From contig MU056756.1 of NCBI GenBank assembly GCA_013239625.1, positions 682,001 to 746,000 of the forward strand: 64,000 nt of DNA, written 5' to 3'. This stretch comes from Lama guanicoe. Its lineage: Eukaryota. The notes beneath the pieces are model-generated. The model was not told the DNA's origin. It ran no database searches and saw only the letters and a program-made list of their open reading frames with translations. The first letter of the stretch is position 1, and each line of letters opens with the position of its first letter. Positions 4,411 through 48,600 of the stretch are shown here, piece by piece. A program made the translations under genes and the position numbers.

Positions 4411-4781
4411 GCGCCCATCCCTGCCGCGTGGCTGCTGCCGCCGCACTCTCCATGCGTCTCTTGTGCCGCCCCCTCCCTGTTTCCACCGTCATCGGGGCCA
4501 CGAGCCTCGGCTCCTGCCCAGTATCATCCTGGGGCAGCCTCCCTCTACCTGGCCCTCCTCCCCGATGCCCTGTCCACCTGATGCCACTATGACCTTTCAA
4601 AAAGGCGACTGTGGCCACAGCAGTCCCCTGATCAGACACCTTCTGTGGATGCTCTCTGAGCCTGGACAGGCCCCCATAGCAGGCTGGCCGCCTCTCCCTG
4701 CCCTTCCCTCCATCTTCCGCAGGAAGGCGCTCTCTGCTCCTGCGCTGGGGCTGTGCTCCGGCTTGGTCCTCCTTCCTCCTG

Positions 4782-4859
4782 TCCTCGGGGTGTCTCACCC
4801 CCCCGCAGCAGGGATGGCCGTCCTCAGGGTGCCTCACTGCCCTGCAGCAGGGACGGCCG
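4782..4859. repeat. Two-copy 39-nt tandem duplication
   Basis: tcctcggggtgtctcacccccccgcagcagggatggccg followed directly by tcctcagggtgcctcactgccctgcagcagggacggccg. Confidence 0.85.
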
Positions 4860-6566
4860 TGAGGGAGAGGTGATTGCGGGTGCTGTCTGGACATGTGATG
4901 AAAAGCTCCACTGAACTTCCGGGGGACAGTGGCTTCGTCTGCAGCAACTGGTGTAATTAAGCATCGCATGGCACTCTTCGTTCTCTGTGGAACATTCAGC
5001 TCGTTTCCCATAAATGAAGGGAACTCCTGCTGGGACTGAGCCCCTGGGCGGGGCCTCATTGTGGGGCACCCTTGACTTTGCACCAGGGGTGCAGCGAATG
5101 GCCCTGCGAGGAACGCCCAGGGATGGACTTCAGCCCCAGGGGTTCTCCCAAGTTGCTTCCACTCCTGAGGCTGGTTGTCCTCATGCATGAGGATGAGTTT
5201 TGGAAGTTGGAACTTGCTTTATGCGAGAAGTTGCTGGGCGTCTGGGGCCCCGGTGGAGGGGTGTCTCCTGCTTTCTCCCCTCCTCACTGCCTCCCTCCTC
5301 TGGTTACTTGGGGTGAGGACTCTGCTCGGTGTCCTTGGTCTGGGCCAGAACCGCCCTTTGCTGGTGTGCTCTGTGCCTGTCCTTGGATGGGGCACGTGTG
5401 ATGTGGGAAGTGACAGGGAGACCTGGACAGACTGGGTGTCGGGGGGCAGGCTCTCTGGCTCTGCTGGGAGGTCCTGACGCGGAAGTGGCACCTGACGCAG
5501 TGCTGGGCAGCGTGTGCCAGGAGCAGACCACGGGACCCTGACGTCCAGGCCTGAGACCCGGAGGCAGGTCACGTGTGTCACCTTCCTGGGAAGCTCCCGT
5601 CTCAGGAACGCAGTGTCCTGGGGATGCGGATGTGGGATGGAAAGTGTCCCTGAGCCTTGTGGTCTGCTTGAAACTCTTACGGGGTCGCGCACACAGACCG
5701 AGGTGCCCAGGCCTGGGTTCCAGTCCTGACTGTGCCACGTGGGCACGAGGGGCGTGCCCGTCGTCCTGCACAGGGGGGACCACCAGGACGGCCGTGCAGC
5801 AGTCTGGGTAGCCGTCCGGGTAGCTGTCCTGGCCCCTGGGCTCTGAGGGTGAGTTCTGGTTCTTTGATGTGGACGGTGCTTCTGCAGAGCTCGCCTTTCT
5901 CAGCAAAGTTTGCTTCCCGCCCCTTTTCTGGTGCAAACACTCCTGAACAGGGCACTTGGTCCACGGGACATTTTCCACGGAGCCGGGGAACCTGCCTTCT
6001 CACGACTTAGCTAGTGTCTCACTCGCTCTCAGACCCGGGTTTTCTGATCACGTTAAGGAAACAGGAGGGCAGAGGAGAGAGGAATCAAGGCGGGCCTGCA
6101 GAGGTCTGGCCCAGGCCCGAGGGCTTAAGAAAACAGCACATCCGTAATCCTCAGAAATTCGTTCTTCACTCAAAGCTGATGAAGATTAAGCTGAAGGAAG
6201 AAGAAATGCTGGGCTTCCGTCTTCGTTCGCCGCTCCGAGCACGTGCGAGAGGAAGCGGAGAGTTGAGGGCGTCGGGGCTGGAGGGGTCTGGCCAGTGAAC
6301 CCCAGGTGCATGAGTTAACTCCTGGCGCGGGTCTGGGTGGCGTCTTGCTCTGGGAGCTCTGTGCCGCGCTCTGCCCTGAGCCTTATTTTAAGGTTTACAG
6401 CCTTTCCACTATTAGGTGGCAGTTCTTCAATTGCAGCTGTGAATGAAGTCCAGCCTCTTTCCTCAGGTGGTCGGTGGGCGTCCCCCCACTCACCCCTGAT
6501 GGCGTGTCTCATCCTCACAGGGTCCTGGCTCCTCTGAGGCCCAGGAGCCAGGTGGACGGCGGCGAC

Positions 6567-6603
6567 ATGGACCAGCCAGGACCGCCCACTCCCACGGCAG
6601 AAG
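6567..6603 (+). CDS. ARHGEF10: ARHGEF10 exon 2, coding part (exon starts 6521; 5'UTR 6521-6566): [12 protein letters not shown]
   Basis: Acceptor ctcacag|6521; strong Kozak context GACATGG; donor AAG|GTAACG, phase 1; resembles human MDQREPLPPAPAE. Confidence 0.88.
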
Positions 6604-9600
6604 GTAACGGCGGGTCACGGCGGATGGGGGCTCTTTCCTGGGACCCCAGGCTCTGGGAATCACTGAGTTGCTGCGGCTGGGTTGGGGCATGGGGTGGGCA
6701 CTCCTGGGGATGGGGGATCTGGGCAGACGCTGAGGGGGAGCCCTGGTGCCCTGTGCTCTCAGCCTGTGCCCCTCACTTTGGGGGCATCCTGGCTGAGTCC
6801 CCTCCTCCCTGCAGTGCACAGGCCAGTATCTAGAGTCCCGTATGTTTACCTCAACATCAGAAGCCCATCTGGGTTGGGGGAAGGGTGGACGACTTCCTGG
6901 TTCAGAGACTAGATTGAGGCCGGACGCAGCTCGCCAAACACGTGTGCCTGTGGCCGACCGGGCACCTGCTGGCTGAGCTGCTCGCAGGTCCNNNNNNNNN
7001 NNNNNNNNNNNNNNNNNNNNNNNNNNNNNNNNNNNNNNNNNNNNNNNNNNNNNNNNNNNNNNNNNNNNNNNNNNNNNNNNNNNNNNNNNNNNNNNNNNNN
7101 NNNNNNNNNNNNNNNNNNNNNNNNNNNNNNNNNNNNNAAAGGGGGGTGCACATTGGAGTGTCCTGTTGTCCCCTCCCTAGAGCAGAGTCATCACCGGAGA
7201 TACTAGGGGGAAGCCGCACACACAGCCCACTGGCCTCCCCCTCCAGCAGGGTTTCCCGGTTTCCGGGCACTCCAGCCTGCTCTCACGGCAGCTTCATCCA
7301 GTGTGAGTGGCTGGCTCTGGGGTCTCAGGCTAGATCCCGCTGTGATTGTTTTGACTGCAAATGAGGCAGACGGACAAGCACCGGTTTTCATCCCCATCAG
7401 AGCGCCGATGCCTGGACAGTGCCTGAAGCGTGTGTCCTCCTGTGGCCGCTGGGGGACGGGCCTGCGTCCCCTCAGCCGCTGTCTGCCTGCTGGACCCGCC
7501 TCCTGGGACAGGCTGTGCGCTTGCAGAGCGCGGGGGAGGCCGAGGGCACTGGGCCTGGGAGCGGACTCCCCCGCGGCCGCCCTCCGCCTCTTCCTTCCTG
7601 GCATTTCACTCGAACGGGCCGCTGTCGCTTTCCCGTCTCTCAGGGGCAGCAGCTGTGAGCTCGGGTGTTTCCCTCCCCTCCCCTCGGCCCTGGGCAGGAT
7701 GGGGCGGGGGGCTGCGGGGCCCTGAGGTGCTGGGGGCGTCACAGCTGCTGGGGGAGTTGTGTCCAGGACCGGATGACGTCCAAGCGGCTCAGATCTGGTG
7801 GCAGGTGTCTGCCGTCCACAGGGGCCACTCCTGCCCTTCCCTTGTTGCACGTGTCCAGGTGCGAGCTGGCCAGTGTCCACTCGGCCTTCCAGTCACGCCC
7901 CTGGTTCTGCAGAGATGCCTGTCCACCCGGCCTGCGCTCCCAGAGGCACCTCTGTGCTCAGTCTCGGCGAGGAGAGGGCGCGGCCCAGCAGCACCGAGCC
8001 CTGGCGGGTAGGCCGGCGGGCACGGGGTTCACGGCCGGACACCTGTCAGGGGAGACGGGGCCAGGCCTGTGCCAGGCTCGGGAGGCCGCGTCCCCGATCA
8101 GCTGCAGCGATGAGACCATGTGCCAGGGGCCGGGGCGCCTACCGGGGTGGAGGCCATCCGGCTGCTTGTGGTGATGGTGGCTTCACAGAGCACCCGGCCA
8201 TGCACCTGACATTTACACAGTTTCTGTGTGTCACTCACACCTCAGTAGAGACAGAAAAGAACAGGTGAACGAGGGGCCCCACAGAGGGGACTGGAGGCGC
8301 GTCGAGGGTCCGGGCAGAGTTCATCGCGTTTCCCGCAAGTGGGCTCCGTCCTCTCCGCCCTGCAGGCTGCTTGCCGACCCCCACCCTGTCCTGCTCGCAC
8401 ACCAAGTGCTCCTCTGACCCAGATTCATGAGCGAGTCTGACCAGCAGGGCCTGCCGCTCACTTCTGGGGTGCAGCCAGTCCTGCCAGGCCCTCCACAGGT
8501 GACACCCCGACCCTGTCCCCAGACAGGGCCCCTCTTCGCTGGGATCTGACTCAGGGCTGGAGGAGGTGGGACCTTCTTCCTGGACCACTGTTCATGGTCC
8601 GCCGGGAACGCTTCCCCCGGGGGCCTGGGAGGACCCTGCAGGTGTGGGGGAGCCGAGGGTGCAGGTGCAGGGCTGTCTCCGGCTCCCCGGGCCGGTGGCC
8701 GTCTCCTGGCTGAGAGCCCAGCGCACAGCTTCTGACTTTGGTGCAGAGTCCGGCCACAAGGCAAACGTGTCAGTGCCACGTCTCACGTGCGATGGCACTC
8801 GGATGCTTGCGTGGTTTTCTGGGTAATTAACGCTTGTGCCCTTAGTGGCAGGGTCACGGCCTGGCGCGTTTTTTGATGATTCAGAGGTGCTTTAATTGTA
8901 ATTTCCCTCATTATTGAACTGAAACTGTCCTCTTACAAACGCCGTGGCGAAGGGGCTGGAAGTCACCGAGGTCGCTCCTCCCAGCGCCACTGGGACATCT
9001 TGGCACTTACATTTTGATCGGTTCTCTGGGTTTTCCTCGAGTTTCTACTCTGTGTGATCGCCACCGTTTGCTGTTCGTTTTCACATTGTTGACTGTGCGT
9101 CTCCATGTCGCGTATTTTCCACGTCCCTGGGAGTTTTCCCGGCTGTCATTTCTGATGGCTGCATAGTGTTCTGTCCGCAGTGTTGTTACAGGTGTGGGTG
9201 GGCTGTCCCGTGTCCATCTGTCACCTGTGCCTGTTCTAGGAGCTTCCTGGTGACAAGTCAAACCGTCAGGGTAGAGCGGGGTCTGGGCGCAGGTTGTGCG
9301 GCAGAGGACCCTGCGGGCTTTGAGGGCTCCGCACACGCGGTGCAGGAGCTGGTGATGGGCGCAGGCATGTGTCTCTCCAGCGTCAGCCCCACCCCTGGGG
9401 ACAGCGGAGCAGGTGCAGCCCTGTCCCCGCGCTTCGGGTGGTGACTGGAGGGGTCACGTCGGGCAGGCGCGCAGAGGCATGGCCAGCGGAGGCCCTCAGC
9501 GCCTTGGCGTAGGAGGGGCTCTGGGATGTGGACGTCGGGTGGGAAGGTGCTCCCGGGTCTCTCAGGATGCACAGGCCGCAGGTTGAGGTTTTAACGTCGC

Positions 9601-12600: not shown

Positions 12601-15600
12601 TTGTCTGCTTCAGGTTGCAGGACGTGTTTCTACCTGACACTCTAATTTTTTGGAGCATATTAACCCTTTGACATTCACATCTAATTACAATATGAAACTC
12701 AGCCACTTACTAGAAGTGAGAAGAGAAATTTGTTCTGTAATCTTCGATTTCAGCCTAACCCAGCAGAGTGATCCCAACAGGGCGGAGGATGCTGGAACTG
12801 GGGAGGCTGGATCCTCTCCTGTCGACTTGGGTGCTTCCTAACCAGCTCCAACTATGTTTCAAGCAACAAGGAAGGAATATATATTTCAGAAGGTTTTTGG
12901 GGCGGGGGCTGAATCATTAAGTACTCAGTTTACTCACAGGAGTAAAGCTGGCGAACACAGCTGAGAGATAAATCTCTTTAACAGAAAAATAAAAATTTCC
13001 AGAACATTTTCTAAATGCAGTTACCATCTCCTTAAGTTCACATTTGCCAAATAAATATGACAGGGGAATAATGCTAATTTAGTGCCCTGACAGAAATGGT
13101 GGGGAAAAAGCTTACATTTTCACTTAGCAACGTGACAGAGCTTTCCCGGCACGGCCAGATTCCTGAGAGCACTGACTCAGAGCCACGAGCCAGGCTTTTC
13201 TTTGGTCAGCCCCTTGCTCGGGAACCACATCTTACAACTGCCCAGCTTCGGGCATTAGAATACACCCGGAAGTGAATTTATGAAAGTTGTTTTAAAAAAA
13301 CACTTTACAGTGTCTCGCACTAAATGGGCTATAAGACACCTGGGAGGGGACGGAGCGAAACACGAGCCCAGGACATGAGACACAGGTGCTCCCGGCACTG
13401 CCTTCACCTGTTTCTTTTTAAAACAAAATATTTGCAAGTATAGTCTATTTAGTGTTTTTATGTGTAATACACACAAAACTCAGGTAGGCATAGAGGGTTT
13501 TAATGCCATATCAGATTTTAATTCCAGCTTATGCATTTTTTTTCCCTGAAAAAAAAATTTTAAAGTCACCTAGTGATTTGAAATTACAGCTGGTACAGTG
13601 TTCTGGTCCTTTAAATTCAACTGACTTTCTTTTTCTTTTAAAATTCTGCACAAGAGATCTTATTATCTGTGATATAAAAGCCCTTCTGTAAGCAAATACT
13701 GCATCCGCTCTCTAACTCCCCCCAAAGAGCAGTCCTGGAAAGAGCTCTCACGACCACGGGGACGCAAGGCACCCACACTGTGGGGCTTACGGCAGGGATG
13801 GCACGCAGCCGGCTGGGTGACTAGAAGGGATGGAGTCTTTACACTGAGCGCAGGGCCTGCTGAGTTAAACGTCGTTGCTCTCCTGGCTGCTTTAGTTCAA
13901 GGTTTTCCGAGTCGATTTTTCCTAACGCGATTCTGGGTCCAGAGTGGAAGCATTTAAGATGTGGGAAGTGCCTTTTTTTTTCTCTTGCCCTCTGCCTTTC
14001 TGCCTTTTCTTTCCAGACTGTGAGCTGTGGGTCCTGACCCCAAGGCCTGATGCTGTGCACATTTCCCAGTAGGAAGGCTGGGTGCCGGCCTGGGGGCCTG
14101 GCCACCCGTCCTCGACGCTTCTGTGTATGTCCAGGAATATGAAAGTCATTTTACCAGTAACAGGTGGTAACACTGGTTTATGTTACCTTACACTTTAGAA
14201 AATGAAGTGAAGTACGACCGTAACAACAACGAGGAGGAGGAGGGGGATCGGCTGGATTTCGACAATGGGGATGAGGTTCCAGACGCAGACGGACAAGCAC
14301 CTGGGGCCCCCCAGGCAGATGACGCGGGAGCCGCCGCCCCCACCCCCACCACCGCCACTGACACCGTCACCGCCACCGGCCCCGCCACTGACACCACCGT
14401 CACCGCCACTGACGCCGCCACCACCACTGACACCACTGTCACCGCTGCCACCGTCTCCACTGCGGGCTCAGGTCTGTCCTCGGGCTGCCCACCTGTGGCT
14501 TGGAACATCCCGGGGGAGGTAGTGTCGGGGGCCTGAGGTCTGTGCTGTTTCTATGATGCAGTGTGAACTGGAGTGGCTTAAGTTTGGTCGAGATCCTCTT
14601 ATTGGTCCTATTTTCCATGATTTTCAGTCTTGTCCGTCTACCTTCATATTTATACATTGGAGGGAACAGGCACTGCCGTGTGTGTGCATGATTACCACGG
14701 CTCCTTTCCGTCTTCAGGAGGTGAAAACGGGAGGCCGGGCGCAGACGCGGCCGCGCCGGCAGAACCTCCTAAACTCGTGGTCCCGCCGAGGGTCAACCCC
14801 TACTCTGTCATCGACATCACGCCCTTCCAAGAGGACCCGCCCCTGCCCGCAGACGCAGACGCCCAGGAGGAGCCCACGGGCTTGCATGTGCCCAGCGGCT
14901 ACTTGGTGCCGGTGCCCTGTGGCTACGCCGTCCCCTCCAACCTGCCCCTGCTCCTGCCCGCCTACTGCAGCCCTGTGGTCACGCCCGTCGACCCCACAGG
15001 TAGTGCTGCCCCGCCAGGCCCGGCCACACCGCGTGCTCCCGGATTCTCGGGCCTTGGCCACAGGAGCACTGCCAAGGGAAGGGTCACCGTTGTGGTGTCT
15101 TGATGCAGCATGTGTTGCTGGAGTGTGTTATATGTCACGTTACCCCTGTCTCCCCAAAACTCACTTGTTGAAACCCAACCTTCAAGGTGATGGTGTCAGG
15201 AGGTGAGGTCATGAGGATGGACTCCCTCCCTGCGTGGGTTTAGTGTCCTGGTGGAAGAGCCCCAGCCCCTCCTCCAGGTGAGGACACAGGGAGAAGACGC
15301 CGTCTGTGGACCCGGAGGGGCCTCACCAGACCCTGAGCCTTCCGGCACCTTGGTCCTGGACGTCGGCCCCCAGGCTGCCAGGGCCAGACGTCTGTTGTTC
15401 TCCAGCCGCCCGGGCTGTGGTATTTTGTTGGAGCCGCCAGGGCAGACTGAGCTGAGAGTGCAGGCTGGCTGAGGCCTGTGGGCAGCCACCTTCGCCCACT
15501 GCAGTCCTGGGACCGGGAGGGCAGCCGGACCTCACGCTGAGGCAGTCCTGACCGCTGGGAGTTACACCTGAGGACAGAGGCCCCTCAGCCGCACGGTCAC

Positions 15601-45600: not shown

Positions 45601-48600
45601 TCTCTCCTAGGGCCTTAGGGTGGCTGGGTTGGCAGAGGAGGAAGGGTGTGCGTTCCACCATCAAGCACAGATGTCGGACTCTTGGTGCTCCCAGTTGAGG
45701 ATCAGCTGCCAGTGTCCCTTCTGTCTGGTTCACGCGGAATCTCAGGGATGGACCGCGAGACGGGGTGCAGACCGTGCCGGGCTTTGCTTATGGTTCACAG
45801 CTGAAGGGGTGTAACTGTTTGGATCCAAGTTAGATACTTGTCCTCCAAAACCAAGGGATTTCTTCTAACAAAGGGCACATTAGTTAGTTAGACGTGCAAA
45901 TATAAGTACACTGTTTATGTGTTAAAAATTGGTGTGGGCACCATGTGAGCACTTTTATACAGCACCCTGAAGACGGCAAAACTGGAACATGATGGCCAGC
46001 AGACAGGTGGTGTGGGGCGGGTGGGGCCGGGGTCTCTCCGGGCCTCTCGTGAGCCTCCCGTCCCCGCGGCCGTGATGGTTCCGTGGTTCTTTGAGGTTTT
46101 AACATCCCGGACCTGGGAAACGGTGCCTACGAGGGAGGCCTGTGCTACTGCAGCTTCTCTGCAAGTCCAACATTATTCCAAAATAAAAAGTCAGAGAAGG
46201 AAAAGCATCTCATTATCTGAAAACACCGACTCTTTAAAAATGCTGGACGAGCTAGACTGTGTTTCCGTGTTTCCTTCCTCAAGCGCCGGCGTGAACAGCT
46301 GTAGGTCTGTGCTGTTTTCTGTCGTCTTGTTTTGCAGACAGGGTTTACATGGGGCCAGGACAGCTGTATCAGGATCTACAGAACTTGCTGCATGACTTAA
46401 ATGTCATTGGTCAGATCACTCAACTGATTGGAAACCTCAAAGGGAACTATCAGGTAATAGTCGAAGCCATCGGATTTAAAGTCCTCCTTTTATTTCTGAA
46501 TCAGTGTCGGCATGAGAGCGCGTCTCCCAGTTCTGTTAGAAGCGAGAACTGACCTTAACGGTCAGAACTGATCCGATCGTCTGTTTTCTCCCGTTTTGGA
46601 GAAGGCGAAGCTCTTCCAGCGTAACTTCCCTTCGTTCTGGGGCAGACTCGCGTGTCAGTGCTCTCTGAGGGTGGTCCCAGCCAAACCACCGCGTGACCCC
46701 ACTCCCAAAGCGGGGTCTTTGTCGCCGTCAGATGAGTGTTGCTGGTCCCCCTGAGGTTTTCAGGTGACGGCCTCGGTTTTCTCCTCCCCAGGATGGATGA
46801 CCGAAACGTCCATCGGCCCCTCTCAGTGTGCCTGTGCGTTTCCTTCGTAGAACTTGAACCAGTCAGTGGCCCACGACTGGACCTCGGGGTTACAGAGACT
46901 CGTCTTGAAGAAGGAAGAGGAGATCAGGGCGGCCGACTGCTGCCGGATTCAGCTGCAGCTCCCGGGGAAGCAGGACAAGTCAGTGGGGACCCGGGCAGGG
47001 CACCCTCTCCACCGGGGCCGAGGACGTGGCTCTCGCCTCGCGTGTCTCCGTGGTGGGGGCTCCGTCCCACGGGGAGACACGTAGCGTTCCCAGGGTGAAG
47101 GCTCCCCTCTCGGCAGGTCCGGCCGGCCCACCTTCTTCACCGCCGTGTTCAACACCTTCACCCCTGCCATCAAGGAGTCTTGGACCCACAACCTGCAGAT
47201 GGCCAAGCTCGCGCTCGGTAAGAGCCTGCTGATTTCAGCTGGCTAGGCCAGTCCCTGCCCTGTGGTGAAGTGTGCACCCAGGAGGGCAGGGTCACGGCTG
47301 AGAAGTTGGCTTGGCGGACGGTTCAGCCGGTCACCTGAAAGGCTCTTTCCAGGCAGGAAAAGTTAAAAAAAACCCAGCATAAGTGATTTTTTTAAGACAT
47401 TTATATTATAATTTAAGTGTTGTAGGAGAAAAAAAGCCTCATTTCCATTAGAAGGCCCTGTGAGTCTGTGGCCTGTGAGTCGGGGGTCCCAGCCCCAGGT
47501 CTGCCCCGCGGGGTGAGCAGATGAGGGCTCCTCTCAGCCTTTTCCTTCCCTGCACCTGCGGGGTCAGACACAGGACTGGATGGCGTTGTCCCTAAAGACC
47601 CCCCCGCAAGCCCCCGGCAGGTTCTGTCAGAGACAAGAGTGACTCAGAGATGTTCTGGTCCCCGTCCCCGTGGCCTCACCCTCTGTGACCCGCGTACCAG
47701 ACAGACGGGTGGGTGTGACGCACTGACCGCGCAGATGGGTGATATACGCACACAGGTCTGCTGTGCGAAGCACGGGGCTGTCCTGCGTCTGTGCGTAAAC
47801 TCCTCATTCAGGTGCAAACACCCTGAAGTGTTAACTGGAAATAAGATGAAGAAGAGAAGTAGGCAGAGGGACGCCCGCTGACCCCCCGGCAAGGGAGGTC
47901 AGTGAGAGAAGGCCTTTGTCACGGGGTCGGCTGTCTGGAGTGGCCCGAGCCCCAGGGAGTGGGCAGAGCGCGGCCCCTTTCTCTCTGCCCGCGTCAGCTG
48001 GTGGTTTATCAGGCCGGCTTCCAGGCGGCCTCGTGAGCGAGGAGATGGCCCAGTCTCTGCCGAGTGAGTGGAACGTGGCAATGAGCTCATTTCGTCTTCA
48101 GATGCTCACGTTCAGAGCGAGACTGGCGACCACTTAGCAGACCTGCTGCTTCCTTTCTGTGTACGTCTTATCCCGTGGCCTCGTGCCACTTAAAGCCTCC
48201 TCCTCAGTTCCTAGCGCCTGAGTCTTAACAGGTCAGTTTCTTGGAAGGAGAGGTAAGGGAGAACAGGTGGTCTGCGCAGTGATGGTTCCCAGGCTGCCGG
48301 TGGGCTGGGCCCCGAGGTGGGAGCCGGGCACGCCCGTGCTCAGATGCGGCCAGAGCGTCGCTGGGTAAACCAGCCAGAGAGCGGCCCCTCCTGTGAGAAA
48401 GGGCCGTTTCCCGAAGTAAAAGGCGCAGTTCTCCAGTCTCGCCAGAGTAGGGAGCAGGCTCCCCCACCGCTCCGGGCGCCCCTGGAAGGTGCCAACCCCT
48501 CTGTTCCCTCCCCACCCCCGACCCCGCGGCCGCAGAGGAGGAGAACCACCTGGGCTGGCTCTGCGCGGAGGATGACGGGAACCAGATTAAGAAGGAGAGA

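Follow-up and report, generated by a model that had tools for sequence, protein, structure and literature searches.

A camelid coding repeat in ARHGEF10 belongs to a hotspot of recurrent repeat expansion in mammals

Coding repeats acting as "tuning knobs" are exemplified by the Gln/Ala repeat of RUNX2. A Thr/Ala-rich tract encoded by ARHGEF10 in the window (the whole stretch of 64,000 nucleotides of Lama guanicoe DNA analyzed here) is, like the RUNX2 repeat, variable in length between related mammals, but no effect on a trait or an activity is known for it and its unit is not conserved between lineages. Homma et al., 2025 (PMC12457776) found that most fixed indels encode disordered regions and that tandem repeats are the source of about half of them. 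The ARHGEF10 insert is likewise a frame-keeping tandem-repeat change in an internal exon with no predicted structure; it differs in being long (39 codons) and in that several mammalian lineages have expansions of the same site, each built from other units. According to Schaper et al., 2014 (PMC3995336), most human protein tandem repeats are ancient and fixed in unit number. The ARHGEF10 tract is also a mammalian tandem repeat, but humans lack it and it varies between sister species. Further, it is contained in RefSeq gene models of the alpaca V. pacos (XP_072806665.1), C. ferus (XP_032324248.1), C. bactrianus (XP_074209496.1) and C. dromedarius (XP_064333678.1), which resemble the window in exon, tract and donor; compared with the window, alpaca has the same length, Bactrian and wild camel have 2 residues more and the dromedary has 4 fewer. 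These models are automatic and no description or function of the tract was found for them. Thus, the camelid tract is not new, and its rating as a novelty candidate in a first-pass annotation of the window is weakened. No published account of the tract or of a hotspot was found in the searched literature, whose scope ended at subscription journals and supplements; supplementary tables of indel or repeat surveys could list the tract.

The window gene is the ARHGEF10 orthologue, based on collinear exons and a DH, PH_19 and WD40_2 architecture. A query with the coding exon following the tract returned ARHGEF10 proteins, with Camelus on top at 96%, and the C. ferus protein is collinear with the window exon by exon from 6567 to 58479, most segments being 90–100% identical. 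The closest model is that of V. pacos (P0133), which differs at 3 of 90 residues in the tract-bearing exon and at none of 93 in the next one, a closeness that points to a South American camelid as the source of the window. In P0133, Pfam detected RhoGEF (442–619), PH (PH_19, 644–804) and WD40 (WD40_2, 912–1393) domains and had no match over the tract at 57–103, which accordingly lies outside the DH domain, as the first-pass annotation had stated. An AlphaFold model of the exon alone showed no secondary structure, with a pLDDT of 42–53 over the tract and a pTM of 0.15, which is weak evidence as a 91-residue fragment and 24 sequences were used; a beta-solenoid fold, considered for the Thr-x-Thr pattern, did not appear in this fragment model. 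FoldIndex gave +0.16 for the tract (not disordered by that index) and −0.16 for residues 1–130.

The exon with the tract is preceded by a TTTAG acceptor ending at 14198 and continues in phase 1 into the next coding exon (Table 1). Translation and splice-site coordinates confirmed its annotated length and the in-frame 47-residue tract, which includes 2 Ser besides the residues listed in Table 1. All four GT dinucleotides within the tract (14366, 14399, 14438, 14453) are starts of Val codons and hence in phase 0, as had been claimed. The additional claim that 14472 is the first compatible donor holds from the repeat onward only, since another phase-1 GT precedes the tract, at 14220. The top TRF score, 119 at period 39 (2.3 copies, 80% matches), was reached by none of 200 base shuffles (maximum 66) and by none of 200 codon shuffles (maximum 117, mean 65). 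As this score beats all shuffles, the order within the tract is non-random; the array is old and degenerate. The periodicity is above chance, with codon composition making up a large share of the signal. C accounts for 78 of 142 nt. When a 571-base stretch was compared with the source genome, one full match was obtained, and the other 12 of 13 matches were partial, of low complexity and 71–81% identical. An unrelated 39-nt tandem repeat (2.1 copies) was reported by TRF at 4781–4860, upstream of the first coding exon.

Table 1. Positions of the ARHGEF10 features discussed, in window coordinates.
Feature	Position	Strand	Remarks
First coding exon, approximate tblastn limits	6567..6608	+	loose end of X2 before 14197 has identical residues
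Second coding exon of ARHGEF10 ("exon 3")	14199..14471	+	273 nt; 3′ end in phase 1; whole exon covered by X1 and X2 RNA contigs
Phase-1 GT site	14319..14320	+	G at 14319 in Camelus, A in the window; the old dromedary model splices there, without the tract
C-rich degenerate coding repeat	14330..14470	+	47 codons, among them 20 for Thr, 12 for Ala and 4 for Asp; TRF periods of 6, 18, 21 and 39 nt
GT..AG intron	14472..14717	+	246 nt; donor CAG/GTCTGT; 246-nt skip in X1 and X2
Downstream GAG/GTAGTG site	14519..14524	+	out of frame in the window; probable orthologue of the donor in ruminant models
Next coding exon, end approximate	14718..14999	+	conserved motifs of 11 and 10 residues

RNA contigs were examined over positions 14100–15100, so that joints to neighboring exons appear as loose ends. 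The analysis covered four of 24 listed runs; four further runs with raw reads were excluded, as their libraries are targeted or PCR-based. Two RNA runs from two studies, X1 and X2, share one allele, which is of the Camelus type (6-nt insertion relative to the window, G at 14319) and not that of the window species. In both runs, the sole joint leads from 14471 to 14718, and the loose ends correspond to the preceding and following coding exons. A single contig of 563 letters crosses both exons in X1, with 255 letters on the shorter side and a depth of 204.5 compared to about 2 for an intron contig; in X2, the joint has just 25 letters on one side. Based on this joint, the tract is part of the mRNA in a Camelus-type animal, which bears out the first-pass reading of the tract as coding and spliced in. 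Two other runs, X15 and X18, have the species label in common, with 0.92 and 0.89 of words shared; they gave no usable cover, yielding 3 short pieces of less than 90% identity with unrelated flanks. Alternatively, the tract could belong to an intron, be skipped in splicing or stem from an assembly artefact: the old dromedary model (P0003/P0004) drops it via the phase-1 GT, it is missing from two donkey models and from that of white rhino, and the RNA represents a Camelus-type allele in contigs, which drop rare isoforms. Nevertheless, we regard this as highly improbable, as no joint at the 14319 GT was present in the X1 and X2 contigs although both carry it, the window is devoid of that GT, and the tract appears in four independent camelid RefSeq annotations. 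Judging from the sequence, a minor tract-free isoform using the 14319 GT could exist in Camelus.

The length of the linker, measured as the number of residues between two conserved anchors, is 86 in wild and Bactrian camel, 84 in alpaca and the window, and 80 in the dromedary; the number of units therefore varies between related camelids. With regard to the possibly length-polymorphic VNTR of the first-pass annotation, the variation seen in camelids is that between species. The tract was found in 14 of the 15 listed members of the camelid RefSeq cluster, the remaining member having no N-terminus. Old and New World camelids separated about 16–17 million years ago. The occurrence of the tract in Camelus and V. 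pacos, together with the different lengths, indicates that the expansion predates this split and that blocks have been gained or lost since. Relative to the human linker of 44 residues (P0270), 1 of the 40 extra residues in the window belongs to the next exon and 39 codons, i.e., 117 nt, to exon 3, in agreement with the shorter human exon given in the first-pass annotation.

To place these values among mammals, linker lengths were compared in 110 models (72 non-ungulates, 38 ungulates; one per species except goat, with two). Not counted, as suspect or incomplete, were the models of white rhino (45), donkey (two, with 46 and 38), Apodemus and the old dromedary annotation (33), as well as a peccary model in which the exon is missing. 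The median is 44 in non-ungulates (range 34–80) and 64 in ungulates (48–93), and every one of the 38 ungulate models exceeds the non-ungulate median. Most non-ungulates are close to this median, with 42–44 residues in 47 and 42–45 residues in 55 of 72 models; the elephant has 44, and values below the median occur in seals (35) and rabbit (34). A set measured separately comprised bear and pangolin (both 43), canids (41), two pinnipeds (35) and the bat Hipposideros (70). Among ungulates, linkers reach 85 residues in horse, 93 in black rhino, 64 in pigs and 64–74 in ruminants, while the hippo has 59, whales 48–55 (blue whale 55) and dolphins 55–69. The excess in horse (+41) and black rhino (+49) consists of Ala/Thr tracts as long as the camelid tract. 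Outside ungulates, the Norway rat has 80 residues with three 17-residue units (63 in a second model; black rat 46), and Hipposideros has about three 10-residue units. The deposited Apodemus speciosus protein GAB1293018.1 (P0018) turned out to be an off-frame reading of an array of ~7-codon units, some 120 codons long, at the same site; in the shifted frame, 35 of 36 positions are compatible with mouse, compared to at most 18 in shuffles. Two goat models (P0180, P0185) differ by 3 residues, and the rat-cluster models P0335, P0339, P0111 and P0342 contain 3, 2 or 1 copies of the 17-residue unit; in both cases, within-species polymorphism or assembly differences are possible. In the white rhino and donkey models (P0161, P0044, P0059), unrelated residues replace the tract, which suggests mis-prediction or assembly gaps; should they prove correct, expansion would be more scattered among perissodactyls than described here.

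These data divide the claim of lineage specificity. The type of repeat unit is specific for camelids, and the tract is absent from human and most non-ungulates. On the other hand, the site itself is also long in all ungulates counted, in rat, in Apodemus and in Hipposideros. A lineage-unique insertion would have left the site unexpanded elsewhere, but other mammals are expanded at the same site. Broad presence in mammals, named in the first-pass annotation as evidence against its reading, is thus half the case, as the site was expanded in other lineages with other units.

Within ARHGEF10, no part varies more in length or is less conserved among mammals than this linker. We compared 19 inter-motif segments; as species are not independent, the following counts are descriptive and do not represent a probability. 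The linker has 30 distinct lengths in 110 models, but each of the 18 other segments has at most 8 (n = 42–109 per segment). Models at least 8 residues over the median number 39 of 110 for the linker and at most 4 for each of the other segments, where the long cases are probably isoform differences. Compared with 20 non-camelids, the tract is the 47-residue window of lowest identity (0.12, gaps counted as mismatches), while 50-residue blocks elsewhere range from 0.62 to 0.97. The dominant periods, given in residues, also differ: 12 in rhino, 6 and 12 in horse, 7 in dolphin, 17 in rat, about 7 in Apodemus, and 2, 6 and 13 in camel. Tracts of Equus (XP_070108903.1) and Diceros (XP_058380867.1) resemble the camelid tract in position, length (85, 93) and Ala/Thr composition, but they are built of 6- and 12-residue units whose residue order is unrelated to that of the window tract. 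A common ancestry of camelid and perissodactyl tracts at the level of units found no support for the window tract, as 248 of 500 shuffles were as good against horse and 168 of 500 against rhino, i.e., no better than chance order. Horse and rhino tracts matched each other better than all 500 shuffles. Camelid and whale tracts were weakly above shuffles (8–19 of 500, uncorrected), and C. ferus against horse gave 19 of 500, uncorrected among 45 pairs. The segment ends are conserved in cats, bats, whales, horses and camelids, down to the final residues preceding the donor; consequently, growth in camelids was internal to the exon. Ruminants appear to have taken a different path. In all 10 ruminant models counted, exon 3 ends with a peptide that corresponds to the start of the window intron (14472–14518) translated in a different frame, stopping where the window has the GT at 14519, and a frame shift with capture of intron sequence is therefore likely in this group. 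The independence of expansions within ungulates rests on such protein models.

Taken together, we consider it probable that recurrent slippage gave rise to the camelid tract, in a linker that tolerates changes in length and is likely disordered. Most likely, it is not a camelid novelty with a job of its own, but belongs to a tolerated hotspot of copying slips. Early in ungulates, C-rich Ala/Thr codons may have formed a seed for slippage, and camelids would have amplified blocks of 6, 7 and 13 codons before the Camelus and alpaca-llama lines parted. Slippage and unequal duplication would act on the C-rich Ala/Thr codons under a frame filter, by which only multiples of three survive. Single blocks would still be gained or lost, as suggested by the dromedary being 6 residues, and alpaca and window 2 residues, shorter than Bactrian and wild camel. 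The tract probably persists because extra length costs little at this place; as a passive spacer, it would separate the acidic N-terminal motif from the conserved NPYS/PCGY motifs, presumably with little effect on Rho exchange. However, length is not free everywhere, since 47 of 72 non-ungulates are found at 42–44 residues. Further, the similar length (80–93) and Thr content (16–26%) in camelids and perissodactyls could be convergence under selection.

Such selection is the core of a different explanation, in which linker length tunes N-terminal autoinhibition or the reach to partners, and selection favored longer spacers in ungulates time and again, e.g., in connection with long peripheral nerves. 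The excess length throughout the ungulates counted, with camelids and perissodactyls as the two longest groups, fits this idea. There is, however, no obvious link to body size, considering that the short or modest linkers of elephant, blue whale and hippo belong to large animals, while the small Norway and black rats have 80 and 46 residues. Rho activation is reported to increase when residues 1–332 of ARHGEF10 are deleted or T332 is exchanged for I (Chaya, 2011, cited in bioRxiv 10.64898/2025.12.18.694955; PMC4187614), the N-terminal 332 residues being inhibitory as a whole (bioRxiv 10.64898/2025.12.18.694955), and an effect of the gene on nerve conduction is described for humans as well as dogs (PMC4187614, PMC4183422). 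The tract is located within the equivalent span. Nevertheless, the mapped disease residues T332 and R338 (alpaca 369 and 375, both conserved) are about 270 residues downstream of the tract, and RefSeq contains isoform models without the entire N-terminus in camel, pig and dolphin. No function mapped to the tract region is given in the accessible parts of PMC12796746, PMC2722575, PMC4183422 and PMC4945064. Overall, tuning by length seems rather unlikely to us. In its boldest form, the exon 3 linker would be a recurrently selected length dial, for which camelids and perissodactyls independently built Thr/Ala spacers of 40–50 residues that retune or loosen autoinhibition of RhoA exchange and adjust myelination or conduction in long nerves, and ruminants would have arrived at a longer linker in a third way, through a frame shift combined with intron capture; this we judge to be clearly unlikely.

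The first-pass annotation had also proposed that the Thr residues are used for modification, in which case the 20 Thr would be O-GlcNAc or phosphorylation sites and give camelid ARHGEF10 a new regulatory input. Indeed, 22 of the 47 residues are Ser or Thr, and horse and rhino linkers likewise contain 20–22. Still, the added residues differ by lineage, with Gly, Ala, Glu and Asp used in the expansions of rat, Apodemus and Hipposideros, which argues against a specific function of this kind. ACC and GCC are simply what a C-rich slipping repeat gives, no connection between ARHGEF10 and O-GlcNAc was found in the searched literature, and sites may be incidental even if modified. We therefore see this proposal as very unlikely.

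The tract is real, coding and already annotated, and exemplifies a recurrent repeat hotspot in mammalian ARHGEF10. Its importance would increase only if Rho activity or nerve traits turned out to depend on its length. Mammals also provide a natural series of linker lengths for probing a role of the far N-terminus in the autoinhibition of ARHGEF10. As 34 to 93 residues are tolerated at this site in a neuropathy gene, in-frame indels in the linker are suggested to be likely benign. The hotspot also accounts for automatic gene models going wrong at exon 3, namely in the old dromedary and Apodemus models and probably in those of white rhino and donkey. Away from exon 3, an 11-residue insert in the PH region (window ~46305–46340) was present in 8 of 16 camelid models checked; it reads from the pyrimidine tract before the exon, suggesting use of an upstream acceptor.
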